Numbered from the stretch's first letter, positions 889 to 35,483 are shown. The stretch: DNA of 64,000 bases from Pseudomonadota bacterium (GCA_016927275.1 JAFGMW010000116.1:1456-65455), one strand, 5' to 3'. Numbers and translations: made by a program. The notes: generated by a model not told the origin, from the sequence alone.

Positions 889-3111
889 GTGATGAAAATA
901 GGTGTTCAGACAACTCTTCTTTCCTCCGTCTTTTCCTCCACTTCGATGGTGGGCGCGTCGCTCGCCGGCTCGCAGCTGGCCCTCGGTTCAGCGGGCATCT
1001 TCCTTGGGCCGAGCAGGAACCTGGCAGCGATCACCGCCTCACAGAGAGATCCAGGCCGCTGCCCTGCTGCTGTCTTTGCCAGGGCCAGCGCCACTGAGAC
1101 GCCGGCGTTCGGATATTCACAGGTCGCGCCCAGGGCAGCCATTGTGTCAAAGGCCGGGGCGGTCGCCTCAAAAAAGAATCCAGTCCAGACCGCGGCGGTC
1201 GGGGCCGCATCGAAGACGGAGGTGGCCGGCGAGAGGGGTTCGCCTCTTCTCCATGCGCCCTCTGAGGAGCGCGTTTCCGAGACGGGCGGTTCGGCCGATG
1301 CGCCGGATGAATCGGGCGTCATGGGCTGCTCGTCAGAGGGGTGCGCCGAGCGGTTCGAGTGTCCGGCGGAGTCGGTTGCCTTGTTCGCCCAGGCAGCTGT
1401 GATCGGCTTTGTTATCGGCGTGGAGTTCGCGATATCGGGCGGAGACGATGATGGGCTTTCGGTGTCCGGCGGCAGCGGAAAGGGCGCCGTCACTCCCTCC
1501 CAGCGCTTGACGCCGGAGCAGGGGGGCGCCATTCGCGGCCTTTCGGCCCGGCCCGCACTTGCGCAGGAGGAGACTTTGCGCCCTGTCTCCGATCTCGAGC
1601 CGTCGGCGCAGATGCGGTTCCCCGGTGCTGACGCTTCCTCCATAAGGTATATCGCGAAAGAAGCGGCCGAGGCCGATCGCGCGATCGACGCTTTTGCGAA
1701 GGGGCTGGCCGGCTCGGTCGCGGTCCTAACTGCCGCGGGACGTGGCGACAGGCCCAGGCTGATCTCGAATAAAATATTCCAGGAGCTCGCCAGGATGGGT
1801 TCCTTCAAGGGCGGGCCGTCGATCGCCGATTCGGAGGCGTTTACAGAGACGCTTGACGGCGCAGCGCTCGATCTCGAGATGGGCGGCCGCAGGATCGAGG
1901 CGATCTTCGCCAGGCACGACGGCAGGCTCGTATTCGCCGGATGGCGTGAGGCGGGGGACAGGGCCTTCGTGGCGCAGCCGGATGTCGCCCGCGAAGAGGC
2001 AGGCAGGATAGAGGCGCGCTTCGACGGGATGAGGGTCATGGGCCTCGGCCAGGCCGGCGGCGAGTCCTCTTTCGGCAAGGAACCGCTCGAGATAGACGAC
2101 CCCGAAGTCGTCGAGAGGCTCCTGGGCCTCATCCTCGCGCAGCTTGCGGCGGGGCCCGGGTCCCTTGCGCAGGGCGACATGCTCAGGCAGTTCAACGCCT
2201 TTGTCCGCGCCAGGCTCTCCAACGGATCGAGCGCGCCGCACACCCCGGAGCAGTGGGAGGCGTATCTCAAGGAGGCGCTGGTCTCGGCGGTCAGGCTCTC
2301 CATGCCATTCGACGAGAGGGGCGCTCGCTCCATAGAGCAGATCGAGTCGGACGCGGCGCGCATCCTGGGAATCGATCTCGTCAGGGTCTCGGAGTGGGAG
2401 GAGCACCTGGGCGCCGAGTTCATATCGGAGCAGCTCTTCGAGACCGCCGGGAGCCTGTCCATGGAGTTCGACCGGTCGTCGCCCAAGGCCAGGCTGGCCG
2501 CTGAATTCACAGGCTCGATAGAGTCCATGGCGAAGAGGGCCACGGGCGCGTCGCCCGATCCCGCGGTCCCGTTCGCCGACGAGGCCTCGGTCCAGTGGGG
2601 CGTGGCCCGCGCCGGCATGATGGAAGGGATCACCGCGAAGGCCGATCAGGCGGCAGGGCTCATGAGGGAGCTTCGCCTCTCCGGCAAAAGGGGCATGGCG
2701 TCGAGGGCGCTCGCCATAATCTTCAGGTCCTCCGATGCGAGCGAGGCGGGTGCGCGCGAGGACGGGATAGTCCCGCGCTGGTCCGAGGCCGAGGTCGCGG
2801 CGGTGGTCAAGAGGCTCATGACCGACGAGACCTGGGACGTGGCGAGCCACCGGTCGTTCCGCATGCACCTCACGCCGGCCGAGAACGCGTTCGCCAACCG
2901 CCTGGTGGAGATGGCCAACCTGCACAACGTCGTGGACGTGGTGCGCTCCTTAGACCTCGCCTCTGAGCGCGACATCGACGAGGTCTGGGAAGCGATCGAC
3001 TCTTCGGGGCAGGGCGAGGCCATCATGTCGATGGTCGTCGGGAAGATGACCGACATCCTGAGGCTGAGCCCCGGGATAATAGACGCTTCGATGAGCGAAG
3101 AGTTGAACTGA
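889..3111 (+). CDS. hypothetical protein, 740 aa
   Basis: Longest ORF in the region with balanced D/E/K/R composition. Overlapping minus-strand ORFs are S/P/R-rich, typical of antisense artefacts. No recognisable motif. Confidence 0.45.
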   Translation: MMKIGVQTTLLSSVFSSTSMVGASLAGSQLALGSAGIFLGPSRNLAAITASQRDPGRCPAAVFARASATETPAFGYSQVAPRAAIVSKAGAVASKKNPVQTAAVGAASKTEVAGERGSPLLHAPSEERVSETGGSADAPDESGVMGCSSEGCAERFECPAESVALFAQAAVIGFVIGVEFAISGGDDDGLSVSGGSGKGAVTPSQRLTPEQGGAIRGLSARPALAQEETLRPVSDLEPSAQMRFPGADASSIRYIAKEAAEADRAIDAFAKGLAGSVAVLTAAGRGDRPRLISNKIFQELARMGSFKGGPSIADSEAFTETLDGAALDLEMGGRRIEAIFARHDGRLVFAGWREAGDRAFVAQPDVAREEAGRIEARFDGMRVMGLGQAGGESSFGKEPLEIDDPEVVERLLGLILAQLAAGPGSLAQGDMLRQFNAFVRARLSNGSSAPHTPEQWEAYLKEALVSAVRLSMPFDERGARSIEQIESDAARILGIDLVRVSEWEEHLGAEFISEQLFETAGSLSMEFDRSSPKARLAAEFTGSIESMAKRATGASPDPAVPFADEASVQWGVARAGMMEGITAKADQAAGLMRELRLSGKRGMASRALAIIFRSSDASEAGAREDGIVPRWSEAEVAAVVKRLMTDETWDVASHRSFRMHLTPAENAFANRLVEMANLHNVVDVVRSLDLASERDIDEVWEAIDSSGQGEAIMSMVVGKMTDILRLSPGIIDASMSEELN

Positions 3112-3119
3112 TCGCCTCT

Positions 3120-4499
3120 TCAGTATCCCTTTGCGATCTCCCTTATCTTCATGATGCAATCCAGCACGTTTTCCGTCTTCGTGCCGCCGGGCTGCGACCT
3201 TCGCTCGACCGCGCTCTCGAAAGATATGCGTTCGGCGAGCTCCGTGTTCGGGACGGGGAGCGCCTCCCTGGACCCTTTGCGCGTGACCTCGTGGACCTGC
3301 ACGCCCATGCGCTCCGCCCGCTCCACCATGCTCGCGGTGGCCGCGTAGGCCTCCCTGAACGGCATGCCCTGCGAGGCGAGAGCGTCCGCCATCTCGGTCG
3401 CCAGTATGTGGCCGCGGCCGAGGAGCTCCCTCGCGCGTTCCCTGTTAAGCGCCAGCCCCCTGATCAGCGGTGTCAGCGCCGACAGGACCTCCCTCGTCTC
3501 GTCGAACGCCCTGATGAAGGTCTTCTTGAGCTCGTGAAGATCGCTCGCGTAGCTGGTTGGCAGAGACTTGGCGATCGAGTGCGCCTCGTTGGAGAGGGAG
3601 ACGATCCTGGCAGCCCTCGCCCTTGCGCACTCGGCGACGTCGGGGTTCCGCTTGTTCGGCATGATGGAGCTTCCGGTGGAGTGCTCCGCGGGCAGATCGA
3701 TAAGCCCAACGGCTGTCGAGGACCAGATGACGATGTCCTCGCTGAGCCTGCCTGTGTGGACAGCGACCGAGGCGAAGGCGTCCATGAGCTCGATCATGAA
3801 GTCGCGGTCCCCGACCGCGTCGTAGCTATTCATGGGGGGTGAGCAAAAGCCCAGCTCCTCGGCGCAGGCAACAAGATCAACTCTAAGCGGGGTGCCAGAA
3901 AGCGCAGCCGAGCCGAGAGGCATACGATCGAGGCATGCATCCCTCGCCGAGCGAAGTCTCCTCAAATCCCGCACGAAGGCCAGCGCGTGAGCAGAGGCGA
4001 TATGGCCGAACGAGACCGGCTGCGCGTGCTGCAGGTGCGTGGTGCCGGGTACGATCGCGTCCGCGCAACGCTCACCCAGGTCGCAGAGCGCCGCCGAGAG
4101 CGACGAGGCGCGTGATGCCGTATCTTCGGCGCATTTCGCCGCGAAGAGCCTGAGGGTCGTCGCCACGAGATCGTTCCTGGAGCGGCCCATGTGCATCTTC
4201 CTGCCGAGATCGCCCGCCTCCCCGGTCACGAACCGCTCCAGGTTCATGTGTATGTCCTCGTCCTCCACCCTCCAGTCAAAGGTGTTGTCCGATATCTTCC
4301 CGAGCGCTCGCTCGAGCAGCCCCAGGACCGCTTCGGTCTCCTCCGGGTCGAGATATCCGCCCCCGCCCAGGGCCCGAGCCCACGCCCTCTGCACGCGGAT
4401 CTCGTGCTGGGCGAGCCTGAGGTCGAACTCGATGCCTCCGGTGAACTCGTACAGCGCCCGCTCGCCGCCCCTGTTGCGATCCGTAATCAGTACGCCCAT
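3120..4499 (-). CDS. argH: argininosuccinate lyase
   Basis: Fumarate-lyase signature GSSIMPNKRNPD. Length (459 aa) and N-terminal layout match ArgH. Confidence 0.95.
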   Translation of the reverse strand: MGVLITDRNRGGERALYEFTGGIEFDLRLAQHEIRVQRAWARALGGGGYLDPEETEAVLGLLERALGKISDNTFDWRVEDEDIHMNLERFVTGEAGDLGRKMHMGRSRNDLVATTLRLFAAKCAEDTASRASSLSAALCDLGERCADAIVPGTTHLQHAQPVSFGHIASAHALAFVRDLRRLRSARDACLDRMPLGSAALSGTPLRVDLVACAEELGFCSPPMNSYDAVGDRDFMIELMDAFASVAVHTGRLSEDIVIWSSTAVGLIDLPAEHSTGSSIMPNKRNPDVAECARARAARIVSLSNEAHSIAKSLPTSYASDLHELKKTFIRAFDETREVLSALTPLIRGLALNRERARELLGRGHILATEMADALASQGMPFREAYAATASMVERAERMGVQVHEVTRKGSREALPVPNTELAERISFESAVERRSQPGGTKTENVLDCIMKIREIAKGY

Positions 4500-4520: not shown

Positions 4521-5732
4521 CTAGCCCAGAGCCTCAGGCTTTCTCCTCCCCGCCTGCCACTGCCTGTAGGAGAGGGTGCGGCAGAACCCGTGCGAGGCCT
4601 TGTTGAGCCCGAACTCATCGTGTTCAAAGCTCACCAGGGCCTTCCCGTAAAGGGAAAAAGGCGATGTCCTACCGGTTATGAACATGTGGCCGTTCTGGAT
4701 CTTGAGGCTGATCGTCCCGGTGAGCACACGGCTCGCCTCGGCGAAGTAGGCTTCTATCGCCTTCCTGGCGTCCGAGTGCCACAGCCCGTCGTAGACCAGC
4801 TCGGCATACCTCCTGCCCAGCTGGGATGATATTCCAAGGACGTTGCGGTCCCAGCACATGTGTTTGAGCACCTTGCAGGCGTAGTGGAGGATCGTTCCCC
4901 CGGGCGTCTCGTAGATGCCGCGGCACTTGATCCCGTTGGTCCGTTCCTCCACCATGTCCGCCACACCTATCCCGTGCTCTCCGCCGATCCCGTTGAGCGC
5001 CTGGAGCAGTCGCGCCGCCGACAGCCTTTCACCGTCGAGGCCGACTGGGATCCCCTCCTTGAACTCGATCGCAACCTCGGTCGGCATGTTTACGCAATGT
5101 GTGTGCGGCCTCGTCCACTCGTATATCCTCCCGGGGTCGAACTCCTTTTCCACCTCCTCGAGTATCTCTCCCTCGCACGATCTGTGGAGGAGGTTCACGT
5201 CGACGCTGTAGACGCTCGAGGCGCCGCCGGCGTCGAAGCCCCTGGACTCGAGGAAGCCGACCAGGTCGCTGCGGCCCTTGTAGTCCCAGATCTTCCACGG
5301 GGCGATGATCTCCATCTCCGGGACGAGATAGGCCCACGCCAGCTCGAAGCGGATCTGATCGTTGCCCTTTCCCGTGCATCCGTGCGCGATTGCGCGGGCG
5401 CCCTTCGCCTTTGCAATCTTCGCCACCCTCTCGGCTATCAATGGCCTGCCGAGCGCCGTGCCCAGCAGGTAGTCGTCCTGGTAGATCGCGCCGGCCCTCA
5501 CCGCCGGGAAGACGTAGTCGCGCGTGAGCTCCTCCTTGAGGTCCTCGAAGATGAACTCCGCTGCGCCGAGCTCCTTCGCCCTGCGCGCGAGCCAACCCTC
5601 GTCGGGCGCGTTGCCGAGGTCGGAGCAGTACGCGATCACCTCCGCGTCGTATTTCTCTACGAGCCACGGGATTATTGCCGATGTGTCCAGTCCGCCCGAA
5701 TATGCCAGCACGATCAGTTTTTTCTCCATCAC
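4521..5732 (-). CDS. argG: argininosuccinate synthase
   Basis: N-terminal AYSGGLDTS PP-loop motif. 403 aa, colinear with ArgG. Located upstream of argH. Confidence 0.95.
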   Translation of the reverse strand: MMEKKLIVLAYSGGLDTSAIIPWLVEKYDAEVIAYCSDLGNAPDEGWLARRAKELGAAEFIFEDLKEELTRDYVFPAVRAGAIYQDDYLLGTALGRPLIAERVAKIAKAKGARAIAHGCTGKGNDQIRFELAWAYLVPEMEIIAPWKIWDYKGRSDLVGFLESRGFDAGGASSVYSVDVNLLHRSCEGEILEEVEKEFDPGRIYEWTRPHTHCVNMPTEVAIEFKEGIPVGLDGERLSAARLLQALNGIGGEHGIGVADMVEERTNGIKCRGIYETPGGTILHYACKVLKHMCWDRNVLGISSQLGRRYAELVYDGLWHSDARKAIEAYFAEASRVLTGTISLKIQNGHMFITGRTSPFSLYGKALVSFEHDEFGLNKASHGFCRTLSYRQWQAGRRKPEALG

Positions 5733-5813
5733 CCCTCCTTTACATTAATATGCGCGACTAAGCATAAATAGTCACATTATACAAGTAAAAATGGGTTAAT
5801 TTATGATTTCATC

Positions 5814-5825
5814 GCATAATTATGC
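5814..5825. promoter_or_regulatory. perfect 12-bp palindrome GCATAATTATGC (ARG-box-like) in the argG upstream region
   Basis: tcGCATAATTATGCac lies in the AT-rich region 5733-5890, immediately upstream of the argG start. It resembles ArgR/AhrC operators (TGnAT-wwww-ATnCA). A related GCATAAATAG lies at ~5762. Confidence 0.4.
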
Positions 5826-5890
5826 ACTAATTGAACAGGGGAGTTCCGGCAGGGAACGGGGTGGATCCGCGTCCGGATGGATCATCCGGC

Positions 5891-8800
5891 CTATGAGCGC
5901 ATCGCTATCACCTGCAGCGCGGCATCGGTGCGGTATTTTTCAAGGGCCGCGACGGCGGCATTGCGGACGACCTCGTCCGGGTCGCGGGTGAGCTCTACCG
6001 CGCGCCTGGCCGATTCGGCGCAGTCGAAATGGGGGAGGGCCTGCGCCATCCGCAGCCGCACGACGGGATTCTCGTCGGTGCTCCTGGCTATGATCCAGGG
6101 CAGGATGCGCTCGTCCTCCGTGATGCTGAGCGCAGTGGCGACGACTGACCGCACCTCGTCATCGTTCGTGTGCAGGTAATGAGCCAGCCTGGGCACGTAT
6201 GGCGCCGTGTCCAGGCCGGTCCTCTTTAAAGCCGCGACAGCGCTTGCCGCTATTATAATGAGCTTCTGCGGCGCTTTCTCGGTCTCCAGCATGTCGAATA
6301 TGCTGTTCAGCCCATCTGCGGGCTTCAGCGCAAGGAGCGACTGCGCGGTGAACAATATCACCGTCGAGTCCTTTTCGGTCCTCAGCATCTCCTCCAGCAT
6401 CGGTGCGGCGCTCATAGGCTGGCGGAACATGCTTATCGCCTGCAGGGCGAGGAGCTTCAGGGTTGGAGAGTTCTCCGCCGAGCCCTCCTTGCCTGCGACG
6501 AGCGGCATGTCCATCATCGCCATGTGAAGGAGATCGCTGTCCGTGCAGTTATCAGGCATCTCCAGCGGATTCAGGATGGGCTTGCCGGTTGACTCCAGCG
6601 GGCTCTGCGTGATCCTGTCCATCATGGCGATCCAGTCCCTTTGATTGCGCCTCGGCGGTTCAAAGACCATGTCCCTCTTTCCGCGAGGCGAATTCGAGGC
6701 GCGCCCGACCCTCTTCGCTGTATTGTGGTAGCGCTCCAGGTCCCTGGCCAGCAGAGCGGCCACGTCCGGCGCATTCCACTTCATGAGAGCGTGCACTGCC
6801 AGGTATTTCACGCGAAGGTCCCTGTCGCCGGCCAAGTTTACGATCGATCTGATGAGCTCGATGCTCGGCCTCTCGATCTCCCTGTGGGAGGGGGTGCCCT
6901 TCCTCGGATCCGGCGGACCCTCGATCTCCGCCTCCGGCTGAGCGCCGCTCGCTTCCGGCTGCATATCCGTGATCATGGCCCTCAACGCCGCGATCCTCAC
7001 GTCGGGGTTTTCGTGATTCGAGAGGTTCTTCAGGTGACTCATCTTCTCCGCATCGTCCAGCAGTACGGCAGCCATTGCGGAGGCGATTTTGAAATGCGGT
7101 GAGCTGCGCTCCATGCCCAGCGTCTTCTTGACCCATGCGATCGCCTCATCCGACCTGTCCCCTTTCTTGAAGCAGGCGACAAGCAGCGCAGGGTGAGCCG
7201 CCGGATATCTCTCGAGGCTCTCTATGAGCATCGGGATGTCCGGTATCTGCGACGATCCCGTCGCCTTTTGAACCAGGCGGGTGATGATCGGGATGTACAC
7301 TTCGAAGCGGAGGTCCATGCCCGCAGGGGTTCTGCCGTTGGCTGCGGCGGCCTTGCCCGCAAGGTGGGCGATGATCCCGGCGGTGTGAACGGGATCGTCC
7401 AGCAGATCGTCAAATCTCTGGAATATCGCCTTGTAGCTTGCGGCGTCGAGCCCCCTGCCGTTCAATGATTTTTTATTGTTGAGCTTCTCCTGCAGATCTA
7501 TCGCCCAATCGACAAACGAGAGGGGGGAGATCGTTGCGTAGCGTCTGGCCAGGATCCTGGCCTTGATCCCCTGGAGCCTCAGCCTGTTGGCTTCCGCCCT
7601 CTTCCATTGGTTGCCCACGTGGTCCCCGGGAGCCCCTGTGTTCAGCGGATTGTTTCTCGTGAGAGTCATTATCGGGCTGACGACCGTTTGTTCGAGCATC
7701 AGGCCCACGGTTTCAGGATCGTAGAGCATGTCCGGATGGCTTTCGGTGTCAAAGTGACCGCCGTTCATGATCCTGGCCAGGAAGGCGTCGTCGCTTTCGG
7801 CCCACTTCTCTATGAGGGGGATGGAGTCTATGGACCTCAGTTTCTTAAGATGCTCGAGGGTGCTGCCGAATCTTAGGGCCGCCTCGGCTTCGAAGCCGTC
7901 CTCCGGGATCGTTGCGCGCGCCCTAGCGAGGGCGGCTCTGGATTCGGGAAAGTCGTCCACGAGCGGGTTGGCTTTGAAGTGGGCGGCCAGCTCCCTGCCC
8001 AGACCGGGTATTGCGCTGAGGATGTCGGGGTTGCGCATTATCTCCGAGTGGATGCGGTCTTCGCCCGACCGCTCGGTTCGGCCGCCCGCGCTCCATCTCG
8101 GTTCTTCCGGCTCTTCCCGGCCCGGGCCGAAGTCGTCTATGAAGATGTCATCTCCAGCCTTGTCGCGCGTCAGGTGCTCGAACAGCGGGGCGTTTTGTGA
8201 TATGAGCTTCGTCGCTATCTCGATCAGGAAGGGATGTTCGTCGAGAGACTCCGGCCGCCCCTTTATCCTCTTAACCGCCGCAGAGACCATCTTGGGATAC
8301 GCCTCGCTCTCGGCCCTCTCCTCCGCCTTCTTGGCCTCACGCTTCAAGATAATTTCTGTTGGAAGTGAAAGAAGCCCGTCGGATGGATCATCGATATCAA
8401 GCCTTTCCAGCAGGGCTGAGCCGCTCACCATCCTGTCGATGTTCATTTCAAGGCTGGACACGTCCATCGCGGACCAGAGCCTCAAGAAGGCCTCCTTAAG
8501 CTCCGACTCCTTGATCTCCCCGAGAGCGTAGGCGTAGAGATACTCCCCGATGTTCTCGCTGCTTCCGCGTTTGACGTCCATGATCACGTTGGCCCTGAGC
8601 TTGAGCCTCTCTTCGTCCGGGTCGCTTTCGTCGACGCTGAATGGCGCGTATATCTCGTGAAAGGGGACGGCCAGCACAGACCCGCCGAAAACATGGCCGG
8701 CCTTGAGCCATCGCATGCGCTCCCCTGAGTCGCTCCTGTCTCCGAAGAACCAGTCGTCGCTACCTTCCAGCACCATGACCATGTCCTCGTTCATCTGATT

Positions 8801-9433
8801 CTTTTTCGGCTCATGGTGCAGGGTCTGAAAGATGTGGTTCGAAGGGTCGGATTCGGCGTAGTCGATGCATTTTTCGGCCATGGCCATGGCGGATTGCATG
8901 CAGGTCGTCGAATGATCCTGCGAGCCATAGAGACGCTCGCATTGCTGCGCTTCCTTCGCGAAGTTGACGGCGCAAATATTAATCAGATCGTAACGGCTCA
9001 GAGGTTTCGAGGAGAGTGTGAACCGGGCACCTGCTGATCTGCCGGGCATTGCCGTCCCGTCAGGCCTATTTCTCTTTCCGGTCGTCGCCATGTGCAGAAA
9101 GAACTGGGGAGAATAATACAGGGCGTCGGAGTCAGATATGTAAGAGGCCGTGTCCGTTGAGAAAATTGAGATGAAAGAGCCGTCCGAGAGCCCCATCTCC
9201 ACCTGTTCGGCAAGGCATGTCTCGTCGGAGGGAGGCCCGTCGCCGCGGCACTCCATCCTGATCCTGTCGGCGAGACCGTCGCCGTTGAGATCGGCCTCGA
9301 TGGTGCGCCTTATCGCCTTGCCCTGGCTGTCGTTTTTCACCACGCCCATATCGAATCCCCTTCCGGGAGGCTCGTCGTCGGCCGTCACCGTTCGAGATTG
9401 GAACCCGCGACCCCGTTCTTCAGCCTGTTGCAC
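5891..9433 (-). CDS. large hypothetical protein (1180 aa) with C-terminal HEAT/PBS-lyase-type repeats
   Basis: C-terminal repeats of the form ENPDVRIAALRAM, DRDLRVKYLAVHAL, DENPVVRLRMAQAL and DPDEVVRNAAVAAL. The N-terminal region has a DLNGDGLAD motif and no other recognisable domain. GC content is lower than the flanking genes. Confidence 0.6.
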   Translation of the reverse strand: MQQAEERGRGFQSRTVTADDEPPGRGFDMGVVKNDSQGKAIRRTIEADLNGDGLADRIRMECRGDGPPSDETCLAEQVEMGLSDGSFISIFSTDTASYISDSDALYYSPQFFLHMATTGKRNRPDGTAMPGRSAGARFTLSSKPLSRYDLINICAVNFAKEAQQCERLYGSQDHSTTCMQSAMAMAEKCIDYAESDPSNHIFQTLHHEPKKNQMNEDMVMVLEGSDDWFFGDRSDSGERMRWLKAGHVFGGSVLAVPFHEIYAPFSVDESDPDEERLKLRANVIMDVKRGSSENIGEYLYAYALGEIKESELKEAFLRLWSAMDVSSLEMNIDRMVSGSALLERLDIDDPSDGLLSLPTEIILKREAKKAEERAESEAYPKMVSAAVKRIKGRPESLDEHPFLIEIATKLISQNAPLFEHLTRDKAGDDIFIDDFGPGREEPEEPRWSAGGRTERSGEDRIHSEIMRNPDILSAIPGLGRELAAHFKANPLVDDFPESRAALARARATIPEDGFEAEAALRFGSTLEHLKKLRSIDSIPLIEKWAESDDAFLARIMNGGHFDTESHPDMLYDPETVGLMLEQTVVSPIMTLTRNNPLNTGAPGDHVGNQWKRAEANRLRLQGIKARILARRYATISPLSFVDWAIDLQEKLNNKKSLNGRGLDAASYKAIFQRFDDLLDDPVHTAGIIAHLAGKAAAANGRTPAGMDLRFEVYIPIITRLVQKATGSSQIPDIPMLIESLERYPAAHPALLVACFKKGDRSDEAIAWVKKTLGMERSSPHFKIASAMAAVLLDDAEKMSHLKNLSNHENPDVRIAALRAMITDMQPEASGAQPEAEIEGPPDPRKGTPSHREIERPSIELIRSIVNLAGDRDLRVKYLAVHALMKWNAPDVAALLARDLERYHNTAKRVGRASNSPRGKRDMVFEPPRRNQRDWIAMMDRITQSPLESTGKPILNPLEMPDNCTDSDLLHMAMMDMPLVAGKEGSAENSPTLKLLALQAISMFRQPMSAAPMLEEMLRTEKDSTVILFTAQSLLALKPADGLNSIFDMLETEKAPQKLIIIAASAVAALKRTGLDTAPYVPRLAHYLHTNDDEVRSVVATALSITEDERILPWIIARSTDENPVVRLRMAQALPHFDCAESARRAVELTRDPDEVVRNAAVAALEKYRTDAALQVIAMRS

Positions 9434-10863
9434 CTGTCGTCCACCGTCCCGTCGTACCCGTCGCAGTTGAGCTGATCCAGCTCCTGCCTCCAGTTCCTGA
9501 AGTGCCCCTTGGGGTCCAGGATCATGCTTATCAGCGTGCCGACGCCAGGGAAGTGGCGCATGAATCCGGCGACATCCTGCTTCGTGACATCATTTCCGCC
9601 CGCGCCCCTGGAGTCGTTGCGATAACTGGTGCTGTCCGGCTGACTCGAGCGGCTGTGCGTTTCTTCGCCGCTATCGTCCAGCATCGCACTCCTGATGAGG
9701 ACCACGCTCTTGTCCTCCATTATCCTGAAGAACAGCTTGGTGATCGAAAATTCATGGGTGACGGAGTCTATTCCGAACGCGCTCACGGTGTCGCCTATAG
9801 CCGCGGGTATCCTGACCCTCACCGTCCCGTCGGGGCCGGCGGCGTTGCTGCTGCCCGCTCTCGATCTCAGATTCTCGAGGCTGGCTATGAAATAGGGCCA
9901 GTCCGCCACGCATCGAAGATCAGCCCTCGACCTCACGTAGCATCCGTAGAGGTCGAAGATGAAGTGCTTGCCGTCAAAAGACGCCCTGTAATTGACGCGG
10001 TCTTTTCTCAGAGGGCCGGGGAGGTCTATCTGCGGAGACGCCCCTGCGTTGCCCACGTATTTTTCCAGGAGATCGTCAAACGAGGGTATGCTGGCGTATC
10101 TTGATGAGCCGTCATTTTTGAACCGAGGGTCCTCCTCGTACGGCACCGGATCGTCCAGCCACTTCGGGTAATCGGGGCTGAAGGCGGAGAGGTCGGGCGC
10201 CTTTTTGGGGGCCTTTGCGGTCCTGCCGGGCCTTGTTTTCTTTGGCGCAGGGATGTCCGGCAGCGACGGCTCGTCCGGCGCGACGCATACGCCCCCTGCC
10301 TCAGGGTCGCTTTTCAGGTTGCGCGCGTCGAGGCACAGCTCGGTGCACCTCTGGCTGTCTATGTACTGCCTTATGTAACTCTTGAACTGCTTGAAGTCCT
10401 TGAACCGCATGAGGTCGGCTTCGACCCTCTTCACGTCGTTGAACTCCTTTTCGGAAAGCTGCCCGTCCGTCTTGCCCTCATTCGCCACGGCGTCGATCTT
10501 CGTGAGGATCGAATAGAGAGAGATGCCGCCGAGCATCACGCACCTGGGGACGCTCCTGATGTCGAGCGGGGACTCGTTCACCGCTATGCCCGACTCCTCC
10601 TGACAGATGGGGTTGAAGCGGTTGTTCTCGATGTAACTTTCGACATAATCCCTGAACCGAAAGAAGCCTTCGAACGCTGAGAGGTCCCTCCAGCCGACGA
10701 GCCTCAGGCGCAGGGCATCGTCGTAGTTCGCGCGGGTGAACTTGCCGTCAGGGGCATTTCCCCTCGCCTTGTCCGCTTCGCGGTCCAGCCCCCTCACGAA
10801 GTCCTTGAGGTCCGCAAGGCAATTCGGGATGCTGCCCACCGATATGTGATCAAAAGCGCTCAT
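9385..10863 (-). CDS. hypothetical protein, 492 aa
   Basis: Long ORF with balanced composition, same strand as its neighbours, and stop 10 nt after the upstream gene. No recognisable motif. Confidence 0.55.
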   Translation of the reverse strand: MSAFDHISVGSIPNCLADLKDFVRGLDREADKARGNAPDGKFTRANYDDALRLRLVGWRDLSAFEGFFRFRDYVESYIENNRFNPICQEESGIAVNESPLDIRSVPRCVMLGGISLYSILTKIDAVANEGKTDGQLSEKEFNDVKRVEADLMRFKDFKQFKSYIRQYIDSQRCTELCLDARNLKSDPEAGGVCVAPDEPSLPDIPAPKKTRPGRTAKAPKKAPDLSAFSPDYPKWLDDPVPYEEDPRFKNDGSSRYASIPSFDDLLEKYVGNAGASPQIDLPGPLRKDRVNYRASFDGKHFIFDLYGCYVRSRADLRCVADWPYFIASLENLRSRAGSSNAAGPDGTVRVRIPAAIGDTVSAFGIDSVTHEFSITKLFFRIMEDKSVVLIRSAMLDDSGEETHSRSSQPDSTSYRNDSRGAGGNDVTKQDVAGFMRHFPGVGTLISMILDPKGHFRNWRQELDQLNCDGYDGTVDDRCNRLKNGVAGSNLER

Positions 10864-10872
10864 TTATCGCGT

Positions 10873-11535
10873 TCACTCCGCTTTTTTTGGCGGCGCATAG
10901 ATCTCGGGAAACGCGCTTCGGTCTTCGACCGACTTGATGTCGGCCATGCGGATTACTTTTGTGTCATCCTGGGACAGCTCCTTGCCGTTGCGCGCCTGGA
11001 CGAGTTTCGCCTTGGATATGACCTGGAGCTTGATCCCGTCGTAGTTCACGGTCATGTTCCTGCCGTCCCAGCGGACCGCGTCGGTTATCACGATGCGGAC
11101 CACAAAGTAGGTCCCCTTGGATCCCTTGATAGTCACCGGGTCATCCTCCTGCACGCTCTTCTTGAGGTGTTTGATCGGAAAAGGGGTCTGGTTCTTCAAC
11201 GGGAAGATGGGCATGGCGAGGTGGGTCTTCACCTTCGTCATGTTATCCGAGACCGAGTACTCCGCATTCCAGAAGGGCCCGGTCAATTTGCCGCCTTCGG
11301 CCGTATCTGTGTGCGAATCCTGTTTCCCGAAAAGGGCTGTGACCTGATTGAAGAGCGCCTCCTTCGGCATCTCCCCGCAGAGCGTCAGGATCTTTCTGGT
11401 GACGGTGAAGTACTCCTCCTTTTTCCCGTCCAGATTCAGGTCCGCGGGCACCATATCCACTATCGATTCCTGCTTCGCGACCGTGATGCCCTTCATCTGC
11501 GGCATGCTGCATACTTTGGGCGTCTTCTCGCTCAT
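10873..11535 (-). CDS. hypothetical protein, 220 aa, Lys-rich
   Basis: First gene of the three-gene minus-strand operon. No recognisable motif. GC ~55%. Confidence 0.55.
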   Translation of the reverse strand: MSEKTPKVCSMPQMKGITVAKQESIVDMVPADLNLDGKKEEYFTVTRKILTLCGEMPKEALFNQVTALFGKQDSHTDTAEGGKLTGPFWNAEYSVSDNMTKVKTHLAMPIFPLKNQTPFPIKHLKKSVQEDDPVTIKGSKGTYFVVRIVITDAVRWDGRNMTVNYDGIKLQVISKAKLVQARNGKELSQDDTKVIRMADIKSVEDRSAFPEIYAPPKKAE

Positions 11536-11661
11536 AAAATCTCCTTTAATTTCAACATATTGAATTAATGTCCTATATAGATTATCGGTTGAGAAGGGCG
11601 CTGAGTTGCTTCATCTTTTCAATTTATGAAAAGAAAAAAGATTGATAACGGGCCCGCATCT

Positions 11662-11673
11662 GCATATTTATGC
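11662..11673. promoter_or_regulatory. ARG-box-like near-palindrome GCATATTTATGC upstream of argR
   Basis: Closely resembles the argG-upstream palindrome. It lies 16 nt upstream of the argR ATG at 11689. Confidence 0.3.
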
Positions 11674-11688
11674 TTATCAGGAGGGCAC

Positions 11689-12249: not shown

Positions 12250-13800
12250 ATGACCATGGCATCGACCAGCCCTGTTAGGTGGCCTTTCCCAAACGGGATG
12301 AGCGCGTTCTCCCCGGCCTTTTCAGGGGTGAGGCCTGAGATGCTCTCGAACATAAGGCCAGTTTCCGCGGAGCGGCCGTCGCCCGCGGGCGGAGTTTTCG
12401 AAGGGGCCGCCGGCCTCACCGAGGCGCGCGCGCGCGTCATGCTGTGCGGCGGATTTCCGTTGAGGGACGGCCGCGGCTGGACCTTCAGCGAGGCGGGCCA
12501 CCGCGAGATAGCGAGGGACTACTACAGGCGGTCGCGCGGGATGATCTTCGAGGGGAGCCGCTTCGACCAGAGGAGCGACTACCTCTTCACGAACGAAATC
12601 GACTACCACTCAGCGTTGTCGGCGATCAGCGGCAGGGGGGGTGCCTACGCCGGCGTGGGCCACATGCTCTCGTTCACCTATCCCGCATGGCAGGGCGCTG
12701 CTGACGCATACGCAGTGGACGCGAACGCGAGGGTCCCTTTCATCACCATCCCGCTGTACGGGCTCATGCTCGCAATGGCTGCCGACCGGATCGATCTCAT
12801 CTCGCTGCTCACCGGCAAGCTCGTCCCGAGATCGGCGAAATGGCGAGATCTCGTCGACGGGCCTCCGTGGCTGCTCATCGAGAACCTGATCGCGCTCCCG
12901 GGCAACCCTTCGTTCGCTGCGGCGGTGAAGCGGGAGCTGACCGAGACCCTGGTCGGCGCCGCGCCTTACCTCGACGCCGGATCGCTCGAGCACGAGGCCT
13001 CAGGCCTCGTCGACCGCATCAGGAATTCGATCCTCCGATCCAACGCCTCGTTTTACAGCCTGTTCAACCCGGTGGCGCTCATGAAGGCGAAGGACTCGGC
13101 CGGCCGCGGAGGGCCGCTGACTAGCGAGGAGCAGCTCCGGAGGGAGAGGTCGCTCTTCATAGAGGGCAGGATCACGGGGGTCGCCTCCCCGATACAGGCC
13201 GCGGGGCTCGATGCGGTGATGTCCCGCGTCTCGGAGTCCGGCGACCGCCTTGGCGTGATGTATCTGTCCAACCTCGAGGACTGGCTCTTCGACGACGTGG
13301 AGGAGGACGAGGAGGGCAGGCGCGACGGCGCGAAGGCCCAGAGGTTCGCAGAGGGGGTGGCCGCTCTTTACGGCAGGCTGCGCGGCTTCGACTATCCCGA
13401 GGAGTCGCTGCTCGTATCCGCGAAGGGCTGTTACCCCACCTCGGTCCACGGCCTCGTCGGATATCTCGGCGACTCAATGCCTCCCGACATGCCGCCCGCC
13501 GATGCCGGGCGTTCCGCGCGCCTGGTCTACAGGCTGCGCAGGGAGGCGGCCAGGGCGGGCCGCGAGCCGATCCGCCAGAGGCTCAAGTTCCTCGAGGGGC
13601 ATCTTGCAAAGAGGCCCGATCTGGCCGAGATCCCGGCCGCGCTGAGGAGGGGATGGAGGGGGAGCCCCTACGGGCAGAAAGAGGCGTGCCGTGCGCTGCT
13701 TGACAGGTCAGGGTATTTCAGGGGACTTACGGATTGGGAGCGTTCATCCGTGATCAGGATACTCATCGGGATGGGAGTCGTAAAAGGGGCGGGCGAATGA
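12250..13800 (+). CDS. hypothetical protein, 516 aa, paralog 1 of a tandem pair
   Basis: Shares long conserved blocks with the next gene, e.g. LFTNEIDYHSA..GGAYAGVGH..TYPAWQGAADAYAVD and ERSLFIEGRITGV..GERLG.MYLSNLEDWLF. No known family recognised. Confidence 0.6.
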   Translation: MTMASTSPVRWPFPNGMSAFSPAFSGVRPEMLSNIRPVSAERPSPAGGVFEGAAGLTEARARVMLCGGFPLRDGRGWTFSEAGHREIARDYYRRSRGMIFEGSRFDQRSDYLFTNEIDYHSALSAISGRGGAYAGVGHMLSFTYPAWQGAADAYAVDANARVPFITIPLYGLMLAMAADRIDLISLLTGKLVPRSAKWRDLVDGPPWLLIENLIALPGNPSFAAAVKRELTETLVGAAPYLDAGSLEHEASGLVDRIRNSILRSNASFYSLFNPVALMKAKDSAGRGGPLTSEEQLRRERSLFIEGRITGVASPIQAAGLDAVMSRVSESGDRLGVMYLSNLEDWLFDDVEEDEEGRRDGAKAQRFAEGVAALYGRLRGFDYPEESLLVSAKGCYPTSVHGLVGYLGDSMPPDMPPADAGRSARLVYRLRREAARAGREPIRQRLKFLEGHLAKRPDLAEIPAALRRGWRGSPYGQKEACRALLDRSGYFRGLTDWERSSVIRILIGMGVVKGAGE

Positions 13801-15290
13801 ACAGGTTCAACCCTCAGATCCCGGCTGCCGCGCCTTTGTCACAGCCGACCCTCGGCTTCGGGCCCATTCCCTCCATGCCGTTACTCAGGTCTCCGCACAT
13901 CCTGGATTCGACTGCGCATGCGGAAAGGCTGCGCGAGCAGGGGGCGTATCCCGAGCGCGCGTTCGGACGGTGGCGCGCGGACGCGCAGTCTCTGAAACAC
14001 GTGATGGAGGGGTATTTCGACAGGTCGAAACCGATGATCTCCGCGGGCAGCGACTCCAGCTCAAAGGTCGATTTTTTCCTCACCAACGAGCGGGGTTACA
14101 CTTCGGCCATAGGCAGCATCAAAGACAATGGAGGCGCTTTCGTGGGTGTGGGCAGGTGCGTGCCGGTCACCTATGCGGCATGGCAGAACGCGTCGCATGC
14201 CTATGTCGTGGACAGGAAGGCGGCCATACCGCTGGGCTTCACCCCCATCTACGGCGCATGGCTCTGCATGGCAGGGTCCCGCATCGAGTTTCTGTCGCTC
14301 ATACTGGGCAGGCCGCTGCAGAGGACGATCAACGCGGAGGGCTTTTCCGCAGAGGACATAGTCGACATAGTGCAGTCGATGCCCTTCGACGCATCGTTTG
14401 CGCGCTCCGTCGTGTCCGCCATAGCGTCCACCTTCACGATAAGCGCCAGGACCTCGGGCGTCCATTCCCTCAAGGGCGTGCTCATGGAATGGATGGCGAA
14501 GCTGGACAAGGCCTTTTATCGGCATCGCAGGTCAACGGGCGAGGAGATGAATCCGGCCGCAGCCCTCATGAGGCACGACCCGCAGGGACGCGGAGGCGCG
14601 CTGTCCAGCGATGCATCGTTCATGAGGCAGAGGGATGTCTTTCTGGAGGGGAGGATCACGGGCGTGTCCGGCGACATGATCGAAGGGGGCCTCGATATCG
14701 TGGAAGCGGATATGAGGAGAAGGGGGGAGAGGCTGGGGGCGCTGTACATCTCGAACATCGAAGACCTGCTTCTCTTCAACTACCTGTTCGACGAGAGGAA
14801 GCCCGATGTCTACACGAGGGTCCTCAGGGTGCAGAGGTACTACGACTTTTACCGCAGGATTGCGGCCGTGCCCGATGCGGAGGACGCCTTCGTGATATCC
14901 GCCAAGAAGAGGCGCGTGACGAGCGTGGACAGGGTGGCAAGATATGTCCGACGCAGCATCCCGCTCGAGCTGGGCGTCGATCAGGCCACCAACGCGGCCA
15001 AGGACTTCTATCGTCTTCGCGTGGACGTTGAGTTTCTAAAGGGCTTTCCTCTCATGGAGCGGCTCGAGCGGATTTCGAAGAGCTGCAGGAGCAGGCATCG
15101 GTTCAACATCGCGCTGTCTGTCCTCAGGTCGATCTTCCGCGGGAGCGCGGTGAACCGGGAGGCGTTCGAGGCGAGGCTGGCGAAAGAGTTCGATCGCAAA
15201 GGATTGGAGAGGAGCGGGTGGTGGGAGCGGATGTTCGTTGAAAATCTCGAGGAGCTGGGCCTTGTGACGAGGAGGCTCAGTCCTTCCTGA
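13797..15290 (+). CDS. hypothetical protein, ~497 aa, paralog 2 of a tandem pair
   Basis: Its ATG at 13797 overlaps the TGA of paralog 1 (ATGA), indicating translational coupling. Conserved blocks include FFLTNERGYTSA..GGAFVGVGR..TYAAWQNASHAYVVD and QRDVFLEGRITGV..GERLGALYISNIEDLLLF. Confidence 0.6.
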   Translation: MNRFNPQIPAAAPLSQPTLGFGPIPSMPLLRSPHILDSTAHAERLREQGAYPERAFGRWRADAQSLKHVMEGYFDRSKPMISAGSDSSSKVDFFLTNERGYTSAIGSIKDNGGAFVGVGRCVPVTYAAWQNASHAYVVDRKAAIPLGFTPIYGAWLCMAGSRIEFLSLILGRPLQRTINAEGFSAEDIVDIVQSMPFDASFARSVVSAIASTFTISARTSGVHSLKGVLMEWMAKLDKAFYRHRRSTGEEMNPAAALMRHDPQGRGGALSSDASFMRQRDVFLEGRITGVSGDMIEGGLDIVEADMRRRGERLGALYISNIEDLLLFNYLFDERKPDVYTRVLRVQRYYDFYRRIAAVPDAEDAFVISAKKRRVTSVDRVARYVRRSIPLELGVDQATNAAKDFYRLRVDVEFLKGFPLMERLERISKSCRSRHRFNIALSVLRSIFRGSAVNREAFEARLAKEFDRKGLERSGWWERMFVENLEELGLVTRRLSPS

Positions 15291-33433: not shown

Positions 33434-33478
33434 GACCGCCTCCTGTCCTCTCATCCAACCGTTCCGATTTCAAAAATC

Positions 33479-35305
33479 CTACTTCGTAGCGTCATAGACG
33501 ATATTGCCGAGCATCTTGAAGCCGCCCGTGCTCCCGGCTGATATCTCATCCACACTTGCTCCCGGGCCGCCGCCCAGTATTGCGAGGTAATATACGGTAC
33601 CCAAATCAGTTACGCTCAGCCAGACGCCTGTGTCGTCATATCCGTCGTTGTCGACGTCTCCCAATGAGGTTATATCTTCGCATGAGGCGCCGGTCAGCGC
33701 CTCGGCACAATCGACGGCCAGGCCCTGCGCATCGATCGCAGCGTCCCACTGCGCCCTGCCGCTGATGCCGACGATCCTGCTCGTCTGCTTACCGACGATC
33801 GGGTCATAATCCTGGATTAAAAGGATCACGTCCTCGAATCCGTCTTCGTCGATATAGCCGAGGTTTTCCGCCTTCAGTTCCGTTGCAGTGCCGAGCTTGA
33901 TATCCACGTCCACGTCGGCGGGCACTGCCATATCGGAGCGGACGCCCTTCTTGCCGAAGAATATGAGCGCCCCGCTTTCAGTGCTTGCCGGCGCCTTCGA
34001 GCTGCCTGCAACCTCGAGATAAGGGGTGATCAGATCATCTATCGTGTCTCCGTTGAGGTCCGCTGCGATCACGCCGGTCAGGGATAGACCGGTCTTAGCC
34101 GGGACATTGGTGATGGCAGGACCTGCGAGCGGATCGCCGGGAAGAGAGGCCGCGTCTGCGCCGAAATATCTGATCACGGTCTGAGTTATCTCATTCTCGA
34201 CTCCCATTTGATAGCAGGCGGACACGTCGCCAAACCCGTCTCCGTCAAGATCGCCCACCCCTATGGTCACAGATTTTGAGCAATTTCCGACAGCACCCGC
34301 CTCCATCCGGGCAGATACGGCATAGAGATTTTCATCGGTCGCCGGCTTTTCGCCCAGATCGGAGAAGAACGTGGCGTTCCCCAGGATAAGAGCGGAGACG
34401 GCGGTCGTGTCATCGATGGCAGCCTGGATGGCCAAGTCCTGATAGCCGTCGGCATTGAGATCGCCGGCTGTCTGGAACCCGATCACTTTGGGCAGGTCGC
34501 TGCCGATTATCGTCAGAGGGTCTGAGGCATCGTGTGAGAAGAGGTTGAGATAGCCGTCTACTCTGGCCCCCACTATGGCGCTGCCGTCATCCAGCCTGCC
34601 CAGCATCCTGAATATCTTTTGTATATCCAGAAGTTCGCTGGAATAATGCCAGAGGCCTTCCTCTTTGAGATTTATTTCTCTCAGGTTGACCATCATGTTC
34701 GCCGGGTTCGTAATAAGCCGCAGTATCTCCTGCTGGCTCAGCACGAGAAGAGTGGGCAGCGGGTTTCCCATCCCGTCCGTTACGAAACCGTCGTAGACAT
34801 GGATATCGGCCGTGTCGCCTTCGTCGCCGTCGAAGTTGAGCTGATTGAGGCCCACTCGGGCGACAGCCACGATTCTCTCAGCGATGTTTGTCCCGGCCTC
34901 CGATTTGGCGCCGGCGTCGAGTATGAGCGTGTATGCGTGGGAGTAGCGCGCAGGCCATTTCACGCTCACGCTCTTGTGATCAGGGGCCCATATATAGGAT
35001 TTGACGTCGATCTCATCCCCGTCATCCACCGCCTTGGAGATGCCGGCGCTCGCGGAGAAGTCCCCCTGCACGATGTACAGGTTGCCCTCCACGGACGCAG
35101 CATCCATGGGTTCTGAGAACTCCAGGGTCACGCCGTTGCGTGCGCTGGCAGAAGTCGCAAATTCGGCCGCAAGCGTGATCTCGGTGCCATCGCCCCCGCC
35201 TTCGTCTTCGGAGACCACCTCTCCGCTGTGGCATCCGGCCATCGGTATGATCAGCGCAAGGACGAGGCCGATCAGCCAAACACTGCTCAAGTATCTGGGA
35301 AACAT
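33479..35305 (-). CDS. FG-GAP repeat lipoprotein, paralogous to the preceding gene
   Basis: Signal peptide with lipobox (LALIIPMAGC) at the start chosen at MFPRYL, which has a GGAGGTG SD. Motifs DLNADGYQDL, GDLDGDGFGDV, DLNGDTIDDL, GDVDNDGYDDT. Confidence 0.7.
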   Translation of the reverse strand: MFPRYLSSVWLIGLVLALIIPMAGCHSGEVVSEDEGGGDGTEITLAAEFATSASARNGVTLEFSEPMDAASVEGNLYIVQGDFSASAGISKAVDDGDEIDVKSYIWAPDHKSVSVKWPARYSHAYTLILDAGAKSEAGTNIAERIVAVARVGLNQLNFDGDEGDTADIHVYDGFVTDGMGNPLPTLLVLSQQEILRLITNPANMMVNLREINLKEEGLWHYSSELLDIQKIFRMLGRLDDGSAIVGARVDGYLNLFSHDASDPLTIIGSDLPKVIGFQTAGDLNADGYQDLAIQAAIDDTTAVSALILGNATFFSDLGEKPATDENLYAVSARMEAGAVGNCSKSVTIGVGDLDGDGFGDVSACYQMGVENEITQTVIRYFGADAASLPGDPLAGPAITNVPAKTGLSLTGVIAADLNGDTIDDLITPYLEVAGSSKAPASTESGALIFFGKKGVRSDMAVPADVDVDIKLGTATELKAENLGYIDEDGFEDVILLIQDYDPIVGKQTSRIVGISGRAQWDAAIDAQGLAVDCAEALTGASCEDITSLGDVDNDGYDDTGVWLSVTDLGTVYYLAILGGGPGASVDEISAGSTGGFKMLGNIVYDATK

Positions 35306-35483
35306 ATCCACCTCCCTGTGCCAGGGGCAGTTTCCATCAATATTGATTAACAGCATAAAGCGTGCCATCCCCTGTATCGGGAGCTGCCTTTCAAGTTATT
35401 GTAAATAATATGGTTTAAAGCTCAGGCAATAAGGGGCATGGATCAAAAGGGTAAAAACATACCGGCTTGTGTCAGGAATCCGA

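Follow-up and report, generated by a model that had tools for sequence, protein, structure and literature searches.

A block of three genes separates argH-argG from argR in the 64-kb window (the whole stretch of DNA that was analyzed). The question it raises is whether this block is a horizontally acquired cassette, possibly a defense or effector module, as originally predicted, and, if not, what kind of system it encodes.

Genes and control regions of the locus

The features of the locus are given below in window coordinates.

3120–4499, argH (strong Pfam match)
4521–5732, argG (strong Pfam match)
5733–5840, minus strand, retained ancestral argR-argG intergenic region (by local alignment), still serving argG
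5871–5890, minus strand, hairpin GCCGGATgatcCATCCGGaC, directly 3′ of the C stop codon (read from the sequence)
5891–9433, minus strand, gene C, longest ORF of 1180 aa; the likely start gives 1152 aa
9385–10863, minus strand, gene B, ORF of 492 aa
10873–11535, minus strand, gene A, ORF of 220 aa, no family
11536–11688, unstranded, divergent control region of argR and A-B-C

As predicted, the three same-strand ORFs (220, 492 and, as the longest ORF, 1180 aa) are all present, on the minus strand, and the flanks are confirmed by strong Pfam matches, to argH and argG on one side of the block and to argR on the other. Since orthologues of A, B and C are found on other contigs (30–65% identity) and their GC3 (0.78–0.82) is typical of coding frames in the window, we conclude that they are real genes. 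An AAAGGAG ribosome-binding site is located upstream of the gene A ATG (11535). The likely start of gene C is the ATG at 9349; the ribosome-binding site GGAAGGGG precedes it, and NCBI annotates the same 1152-aa product (P0005). The close spacing of the genes described earlier is therefore correct, with gaps of 9 nt (A-B) and 35 nt (B-C), but the overlap of B and C is an artefact that arises when the first GTG is taken as the C start. ORF boundaries rule out N-terminal extensions. The start of argR is most likely at 11689 rather than 11626. The hairpin GCCGGATgatcCATCCGGaC possibly marks the end of the operon, though it has no T-run and was not called by a consensus terminator scan.

An ARG-box-like palindrome (11661–11674) precedes the argR start by 14 nt and the A start by 126 nt, and a second one (5813–5826) lies in the retained argG-side region. 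The ARG-box pattern occurs only at these two sites in 64 kb, against 0.03 occurrences expected by chance.

Searches of Pfam, NCBIfam, PADLOC, PHROGs and PDB sequences produced no match to A, B or the N-terminal ~745 aa of C, and no paralogues of the three genes were found elsewhere in the window. The earlier statement that no motif can be assigned thus holds for these parts but not for the C-terminus of C, which matches HEAT/HEAT_2. The combination of genes indeed corresponds to no catalogued system.

Composition and site of the block

Total GC of A, B and C is 0.566, 0.597 and 0.600, respectively, while the 31 other window genes average 0.648 (sd 0.028; z-scores of −3.0, −1.8 and −1.7 for A, B and C), and GC of the module is 4.1% under that of the rest of the window. 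The dip is smaller than the ~53–58% against ~65% that had been reported. GC3 of the three genes deviates less (z = −0.6 to −1.3 relative to 0.844, sd 0.05), and several other window genes have GC3 as low or lower. Since the dip falls mostly on codon positions 1 and 2, it is mainly an effect of amino-acid composition.

In the two nearest genomes found (L012 and L013), whose ArgG is 74–75% identical to that of the window, argR and argG are divergent neighbours ~100–130 nt apart. It follows that the block, 5.8 kb in length, was either inserted or relocated. The intergenic region of these genomes aligns with window positions 5733–5840, upstream of argG; for L012, the local alignment score is 45, compared to 17 ± 2.6 for shuffled sequences, none of which (0/300) reaches 45. 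The A-B-C operon interrupts an argR-argG control region that is unbroken in the nearest genomes found.

No integrase, transposase or other mobility genes were detected within the block or its flanks. There is no tRNA at the block, the nearest one being 12 kb away, and there are no long flanking direct repeats, only the ~16 nt ARG-box palindrome, an element under functional constraint. Insertion of an IS or a transposon was rejected, there being neither terminal repeats nor a transposase. The idea that a long part of the arg control region had been duplicated round the insert was rejected as well: the two edges are similar only over the ~16 nt ARG box, with a score that 11 of 300 shuffles reach. 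Of the horizontally acquired cassette that was initially proposed, the indel relative to L012 and L013 is supported and the foreign composition is not supported; the block may have come by horizontal transfer or by relocation within the genome.

The conserved B-C gene pair

Gene C directly follows gene B in nine out of nine distinct loci (the window, L001, L003, L005, L007, L025, L026, L027 and L028), with C HMM E-values reaching 1e-63 or better and with the two genes within about 35 nt of each other or overlapping. Each pair is located in a different housekeeping neighbourhood, and no defense, integrase or transposase genes were found among the neighbours in the nine loci. Only one copy of the pair is present in the stretches examined, and in most other loci its GC follows that of the surrounding DNA (41–61%) to within about 2.5%. 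Given this and the host-like GC3, a compositionally foreign cassette is not supported.

In the closest relative, a divergent B-C pair and the empty arg site are ~126 kb apart on one contig. The window B and C are 26–28% identical to this pair, where argG is 74% identical; identity to the L001 proteins is 43% for B and 30% for C, against 28% and 26% for the nearest genome's pair. A triad travelling between arg loci, which had been raised as a question, is not supported, since the conserved unit is the B-C pair, gene A is clade-specific, and only in the window genome is the module found at arg.

The conserved core, the B-C pair, is confined to a few uncultured, poorly classified bacteria; the window argG is closest to Bdellovibrionota sequences. 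Word-indexed homology searches with A, B and the C N-terminus returned only the query and one relative each. GTDB species genomes, the JGI metagenome collection and viral contigs were scanned with patterns for B, which revealed no relatives, and a degenerate DNA pattern for C, validated by its match to six of six C loci, retrieved nothing from metagenome or viral collections. No match was obtained when plasmids and phages were searched with B by tblastn, nor were any matches to the module seen in phages, plasmids or viral contigs. Nothing relevant was found in the literature on DUF7790 or on HEAT repeats in Bdellovibrionota.

Gene A is present only in a “long-form” subclade (the window, L001 and L002), and its HMM gave no match in the seven remaining B-C loci. 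Its orthologues are P0004 (65% identity) and L001 9358–9975 (36%), and it has a conserved N-terminal DLN(L/F)DG motif. The gene A product may be an accessory subunit specific to this subclade. The single PDB lead for A, a weak match to the staphylococcal SElX structure 5u75 (E = 0.033, domain E = 0.27), was kept as a hint of a possible resemblance.

Domains of the gene C product

Gene C consists of two parts.

7124–9349, minus strand, N-terminal ~745 aa, no family
5891–7123, minus strand, C-terminal ~400 aa, HEAT/HEAT_2 (PBS-lyase-type) repeats up to the stop codon

The N-terminal region contains, close to its N-terminus, the motifs DLN.DG..DR and Q.E.G.S.G.F, and it has a ~170 aa insert common to L001 only. 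The C-terminus matches Pfam HEAT_2 (2.9e-19) and HEAT (1.7e-8), and its repeats H1 and H2 are related internally (hhalign, E = 1.4e-4). The possibility that C is a HEAT solenoid throughout was rejected, as hhalign showed no relationship between the N-terminal 745 aa and the HEAT repeats. The repeats of the C-terminal ~400 aa are of the HEAT_2 type, as in the PBS-lyase HEAT proteins NblB, CpcE and YibA. These proteins, however, are ~200–300 aa long, whereas C has an extra ~745 aa N-terminus without relatives. C scored 32.2 bits with the NblB-type model (cut-off 300), through residues 1009–1160 only, and is thus no full-length equivalog of NblB/CpcE.

Domains of the gene B product

The B family is rare, with 44 clusters among 1.84 billion representatives. 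An AlphaFold2 model of B based on a 22-sequence alignment had a mean pLDDT of 77, with domains above 90; since prediction with 2 sequences gave a pLDDT of 46, only the 22-sequence model was used. The following parts were defined.

10264–10863, minus strand, residues 1–200, tandem EF-hand-like helical N-modules, 1–95 and 98–200 (model)
10009–10263, minus strand, residues 201–285, Pro/Lys-rich low-confidence spacer, C.AP.P.LPP.PK...
9664–10008, minus strand, residues 286–400, Ig/FN3-like beta-sandwich head with the motif FDGK.FI.D.HGC.V...C.ADWP.F
9388–9663, minus strand, residues 401–492, low-confidence C-terminal tail

In the model, the N-modules are helix-loop-strand-helix units (pLDDT 82–95); the module is matched twice per protein in the window B, P0002, P0013 and P0020. 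The spacer, with pLDDT mostly below 75 (block means 42–74) and below 50 at 251–256 and 272–281, is kept across the family with variable length. The tail carries a conserved hydrophobic motif, PQ[LI]G..L...F.[DN]P, and, next to it in the alignment, a C-x(10-13)-C loop. In some homologues, though not in the window B, the hydrophobic motif is as hydrophobic as a TM segment (KD19 ≥ 1.6). Foldseek searches of PDB and BFVD with the B model returned no significant or coherent match. In paralogues, N-modules are fused to other heads, i.e., vWA, TonB_C or an “LFELWDEC” domain of no known family, and there is no C gene downstream of such proteins (P0020 and P0038).

The N-module resembles EF-hand proteins (centrin/calmodulin and extracellular disulfide-stabilised ones) in its helix-loop-short-strand-helix arrangement with the loop SDG.FT..NF. 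Of the ten top matches of its profile to PDB, nine are EF-hand proteins, with the loop as the aligned part; all are sub-threshold (E 0.1–2), and only loop positions 5, 6 and 12 fit. The best Pfam match is EF-hand_5, which one of the 26 modules matched with E = 0.014. Neither a significant EF-hand profile match nor the canonical 12-residue Ca2+ loop (acidic 1, 3, 5 and 12) was found in the N-modules. Unlike in EF-hands, there is a single loop per module, with Gly or another residue in place of Asp/Asn at loop positions 1 and 3, which makes canonical Ca2+ binding doubtful.

Cysteines of B and C tend to be lost in pairs. N-modules show the patterns CCCC, xCxC and CxC--; C1 and C3 are missing together in nine modules, and C2 and C4 in the first module of proteins that have two. 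C308/C318 of the B head are lost jointly in P0033 and C34/C45 of the C N-terminus in P0006; two of these four observations rest on a single sequence each. The pairwise loss suggests that these cysteines form disulfides, although paired cysteines could bind metal instead.

B also resembles TonB/TolA-type periplasm-spanning proteins, in which a Pro/Lys-rich spacer lies between the anchoring N-terminus and the binding domain at the C-terminus; TonB_C itself is present only in the paralogue P0013, after its N-modules and spacer. Of the TM anchor, Pro-rich spacer and TonB_C that characterize the TonB family, however, the window B has the spacer only, its N-terminal part being a soluble EF-hand-like module. 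The loci showed neither ExbB/ExbD nor TolQ/TolR genes. Bacterial Ig-like (BIg/FN3) adhesin domains (Bap, SiiE, intimin and pilins) are also among the systems closest to the module. No enzymatic, nuclease, ATPase or toxin domain was found in A, B or C (Pfam, NCBIfam and PHROGs detected only HEAT), and neither a signal peptide nor a TM segment is present in A, B, C or their orthologues.

Possible functions of the module

We tentatively favor a reading in which B and C constitute a non-enzymatic binding scaffold that acts outside the cytoplasm, with A as an accessory and the position at arg incidental. B and C would be made together and, judging from the adjacency of their genes, would form a complex, with the C solenoid as a platform and B displaying its binding head on the spacer. 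As the cysteine pairs point to disulfides, the complex would most likely be extracytoplasmic, in the envelope or at the surface, where it might serve attachment or bridging, for example. The lack of signal peptides and TM segments argues against this, as export would require a route independent of Sec or Tat signals, and no secretion genes are linked to the module in any locus. Though its arg position would be incidental, the operon may now have an ARG-box control region in common with argR.

The same lack of signals is expected of a cytoplasmic scaffold or regulatory complex, a possible but somewhat less probable alternative. Here, the paired cysteines would bind metal or act as redox switches, a cation would occupy the EF-hand-like loops, the HEAT solenoid would organise partners, and the ArgR operator may couple expression to arginine status. 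HEAT/PBS-lyase-type repeats, including the NblB and YibA types that C partially matches, are usually cytoplasmic, and the ARG box upstream of A fits such coupling. Only one locus adjoins arg genes, however. In addition, a four-ligand metal site should not tolerate loss of half of its ligands, while clean pairwise loss is seen at several independent sites, and heads of the Ig-like, vWA and TonB_C kinds, like Pro/Lys spacers, are typical of envelope or surface proteins.

It is rather unlikely that B is the substrate of a specialised secretion system, with the N-module as a trafficking domain common to a polymorphic set of cargo heads and C as the chaperone or adaptor that serves the Ig-head class. 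The proteins would then enter another cell or its periplasm and form their disulfides there. Like polymorphic toxin/effector loci, the N-module family combines a common N-terminal module and a linker with swappable C-termini, has no Sec signal and diverges rapidly (see the B/C and argG identities above), and the N-module protein P0020 adjoins an Rhs/YD-repeat toxin cluster. Unlike in such loci, no known trafficking or toxin domain, immunity-like small gene or linked secretion apparatus (T1SS, T3SS, T4SS, T6SS or T7SS) was found in the window or any related locus; a chaperone of ~1150 aa would be unusual, and the heads are binding rather than toxic domains.

A horizontally acquired anti-phage defense or other conflict system, which the indel, the lowered total GC and the rarity of the family might suggest, is very improbable, since no PADLOC-DB defense HMM matched A or B and C matched only HEAT-ARM_XIII (C-terminus, 1.2e-8, profile positions 568–645 of 1972, i.e., 78 positions of generic HEAT), no effector or sensor enzymatic domain, toxin domain or TM segment is present, the nine loci are free of defense and mobile genes, phage, plasmid and viral matches are lacking, and single copy, host-like GC3 and GC that tracks the surroundings are as expected of a resident lineage gene.

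An extended form of the extracytoplasmic scaffold reading is speculative and, in our estimate, improbable as a whole: the N-module family would be a new signal-less exported class of a Bdellovibrionota-related lineage, with a disulfide-stapled EF-hand-like base and swappable heads (Ig-like, vWA, TonB_C), whose Ig-head class would dock on C, its dedicated giant HEAT-repeat platform, to form a new kind of envelope or surface apparatus for cell-cell attachment or bridging, which in the window genome would be under a control region shared with ArgR.

Significance

For genome scanning, the locus is a caution that a lower-GC insertion amid housekeeping genes is not necessarily a foreign defense cassette; here, the GC dip is largely amino-acid composition and the core gene pair is a lineage resident. 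If the scaffold inference holds, the module defines a new protein family (~44 sequence clusters) and its strictly co-inherited partner, with defining domains that are absent from Pfam, NCBIfam and PDB. The puzzle it poses is that disulfide-type cysteine covariation and an envelope-type architecture occur in proteins that have no export signal. Its solution could uncover a new route of export, or a new surface structure, in a lineage that is uncultured and possibly predatory.

Gene models and base composition

Three consecutive ORFs on the minus strand, A, B and C, lie between argH-argG and argR, with the following coordinates in the window:

3120-4499, argH (Pfam match)
4521-5732, argG (Pfam match)
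5891-9433, minus strand, gene C (longest ORF)
9385-10863, minus strand, gene B (492 aa ORF)
10873-11535, minus strand, gene A (220 aa ORF)
other flank of the triad, argR (Pfam match)

The arrangement of three same-strand genes in the original prediction is therefore retained, except that the overlap of B and C is an artefact of taking the first GTG as the start of C. The likely start of C is the ATG at 9349, with GGAAGGGG upstream, and is also the NCBI start (P0005, 1152 aa); consequently, the intergenic gaps are 9 nt (A-B) and 35 nt (B-C). The start of gene A at 11535 is preceded by an AAAGGAG site, and its N-terminal extension is also present in the homologous protein P0004. A 740 aa ORF adjoining argH (889-3111) is uncharacterised and lineage-specific, with no Pfam or NCBIfam match and no homologue at the arg loci of the two nearest genomes found (L012 and L013).

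Base composition was computed over 34 genes of the window. Total GC was 0.566, 0.597 and 0.600 for A, B and C, respectively, against 0.648 +/- 0.028 for the other genes, so that the reported dip is genuine but smaller than claimed. GC3 was 0.82, 0.80 and 0.78 (other genes, 0.844 +/- 0.05; z = -0.6 to -1.3), and several other window genes are as low or lower. Codon positions 1 and 2 account for most of the dip, which thus reflects amino-acid composition. Elsewhere in the window, two adjoining large FG-GAP/Big_5 proteins (747 and 629 aa) are encoded at 31211-35368; no measured gene is lower in GC (0.579) or GC3 (0.70) than the second of these, whose GC3 is also below that of the triad.

Relatives of the three proteins

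As the original prediction held, the proteins are unrecognisable: neither A and B nor the N-terminal ~745 aa of C gave a match in Pfam, NCBIfam, PADLOC, PHROGs or PDB sequences, and HEAT/HEAT_2 repeats are confined to the final ~400 aa of C. Word-indexed searches of 5.8 billion proteins retrieved the proteins of the window's own MAG (labelled "Proteobacteria bacterium", locus tags JXA24_07850 and JXA24_07855) and only three others. These are P0002 (43% identity to B), P0004 (65% to A) and P0006 (28% to C). P0002 is encoded on a JGI contig, L001, which contains the entire triad in unchanged order (36%, 43% and 30% identity for A, B and C), with xanthine-dehydrogenase, PEGA and OmpA genes rather than arg genes as neighbours. 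When 1.84 billion representatives were searched exhaustively by HMMER with a profile of B, 44 clusters matched. We conclude that A, B and C are real genes almost without relatives.

The conserved unit is the pair B-C

For eight further B-type genes, contigs were available (L003, L005/L006, L007, L025, L026, L027 and L028); in every case a C orthologue of 790-928 aa comes next, within ~35 nt or overlapping, with HMM E-values of 1e-63 to 0. With the window and L001 included, B and C are adjacent in nine of nine distinct loci. Gene A, in contrast, is restricted to the window, L001 and a fragment, L002; loci with A, which we call the "long-form" subclade, also have a duplicated N-module (the ~100 aa EF-hand-like N-terminal unit of B) and a ~170 aa insert in C. 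The conserved unit is thus the pair B-C and not the triad. Conservation does not extend to the surroundings, which are housekeeping in nature and differ at every locus (purB/hemC, pyrF/proS/ispG, nadC/valS and smc among them). The GC content of the pair, 41% to 61%, tracks that of the surrounding DNA in most loci.

Insertion or relocation at the arg locus

An ArgG scan of GTDB species genomes identified L012 (75% identity) and L013 (74%) as near relatives, the next-best matches (54-64%) being mostly Bdellovibrionota. In both relatives argR is the divergent gene immediately upstream of argG, and none of A, B and C occurs at that site. Their argR-argG intergenic region of ~100-130 nt aligns with window positions 5733-5840 upstream of argG (score 45 vs 17 +/- 2.6 in shuffles). 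No transposase, integrase, nearby tRNA or longer flanking repeat was found at the block. The 1.09 Mb contig of L013 carries, ~126 kb from the arg locus, a short-form B (P0011) with its own C; this B and C share only 28% and 26% identity with their window counterparts, against 74%, 60% and 53% for ArgG, ArgH and ArgR of the same genome. Given the empty arg sites and the P0011 pair, the A-B-C block was either inserted or relocated relative to these two genomes; the B-C pair itself belongs to the lineage and evolves fast. The proposed horizontally acquired cassette is supported insofar as the block is missing from this site in the relatives; transfer from an L001-like organism may have occurred, since the module has a GC content of 61% in L001 and 59.5% in the window.

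The following elements adjoin the block:

5813-5826, ARG-box-like palindrome TGCATAWWTATGCA, at one block edge
11661-11674, ARG-box-like palindrome TGCATAWWTATGCA, at the other block edge
12250-15290, two tandem DUF7790 paralogues (516 aa and ~495-518 aa), between argR and serS

With up to 2 mismatches, the palindrome occurs exactly twice in 64 kb (0.03 expected). It matches the ARG-box-like element beside argR in L012 and L013, which have one strong copy each, adjoining argR. The longest argR ORF begins at 11626; the L012/L013 alignment and the NCBI/Logan gene call put its start at 11689, which places the ARG box upstream of argR and not within it. Owing to the placement of the block beside argR, the box also sits 126 nt upstream of A. 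Duplication of the operator may have accompanied the insertion, and the triad may be under ArgR influence. In L012 the order is dsbA-serS-(one 295 aa ORF)-argR, with no DUF7790 homologue in this syntenic stretch; the paralogues, neither of which has an obvious signal peptide, are therefore a second local lineage-specific indel beside the triad.

Predicted architecture

A usable AlphaFold2 model of B, built from a 22-sequence alignment, averages a pLDDT of 77 and reaches at least 90 at 222 residues; it divides the protein as follows:

residues 1-95 and 98-200, N-modules, two helix-loop-strand-helix units
residues about 201-285, Pro/Lys-rich spacer, low confidence
residues 286-400, head, beta-sandwich, pLDDT 89-98
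residues 401-492, tail, low confidence, with a conserved hydrophobic motif

EF-hand proteins made up nine of the ten top matches of a profile of 26 N-modules, all sub-threshold and all aligned on the SDG.FT..NF loop; unlike in EF-hands, acidic residues are missing from loop positions 1 and 3. In other proteins the N-module is joined to different heads: vWA in several members (e.g., P0038), TonB_C in P0013, and an unclassified "LFELWDEC...HFPKGS" domain. C was absent downstream of such genes in both cases examined. The two HEAT blocks of C are mutually related, and the N-terminal 745 aa are unrelated to either.

Members with different heads have in common a C-terminal motif, PQ[LI]G..L...F.[DN]P (window 9388-9663; P0007, P0012, P0016, P0023, P0036, P0042 and P0049), followed in some by a C-x(10-13)-C loop. 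Its hydrophobicity is TM-like in several homologues, and it could be a tail anchor or sorting signal. The motif DLN.DG recurs in A and C, some 20-30 residues in from the N-terminus of each. A profile built from three A sequences aligned over almost its full length with staphylococcal enterotoxin-like toxin X (PDB 5u75), but the match is not significant (E = 0.033; domain E = 0.27). At L008 1-17683 and L005 1-7825, N-module genes adjoin giant (over 3000 aa) CHU_C/Big_13/FlgD_ig/OmpA-type proteins; that of L008, whose NCBI label Patescibacteria looks doubtful, is also beside an SpvB-TcdB-Rhs/YD-repeat cluster with a Macro-domain gene.

Cysteine covariation and possible role

The four conserved cysteines of the N-module act as two pairs: C1 and C3 are jointly absent in nine N-modules, C2 and C4 in the first modules of double-module proteins, and where C2 alone is missing a new cysteine arises nearby. 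Likewise, C308/C318 of the B head are jointly lost in P0033 and C34/C45 of protein C in P0006, while C126/C161 of protein C are invariant. Pairwise loss is the pattern of disulfide bonds, and a metal site with four ligands would not be expected to show it; from such established knowledge, rather than measurement here, the co-loss would indicate disulfides. Counting against this is the absence of a signal peptide or TM segment from all of the proteins and orthologues, longer N-termini being ruled out by upstream stop codons.

Since the covariation goes together with an architecture of envelope type, in which Pro/Lys spacers carry Ig, vWA and TonB_C heads, we tentatively favour a role at the envelope or surface, outside the cytoplasm and reached by a non-Sec route. 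A cytoplasmic scaffold, whose cysteines would serve metal or redox functions, is rather unlikely. Less probable still is a secretion substrate with its adaptor; no mobility, defence or secretion genes were found in the B-C loci. The defence or effector role first proposed is not supported, because A, B and C contain no catalytic, nuclease, ATPase, toxin or pore domain and no link of the module to phages, plasmids or defence islands was found; a defence system is very improbable.

The evidence best fits a binding module that is non-enzymatic and lineage-restricted, in which B would be a stalked Ig-like binder on EF-hand-like bases, C its co-expressed giant solenoid partner, and A a third, clade-specific subunit. 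The evidence on its function is indirect, uncharacterised conserved gene pairs are numerous, and the carriers of B-C are uncultured. No described family includes any of the defining parts of the module, which also has no counterpart among known multi-gene systems; in that sense, it is new.
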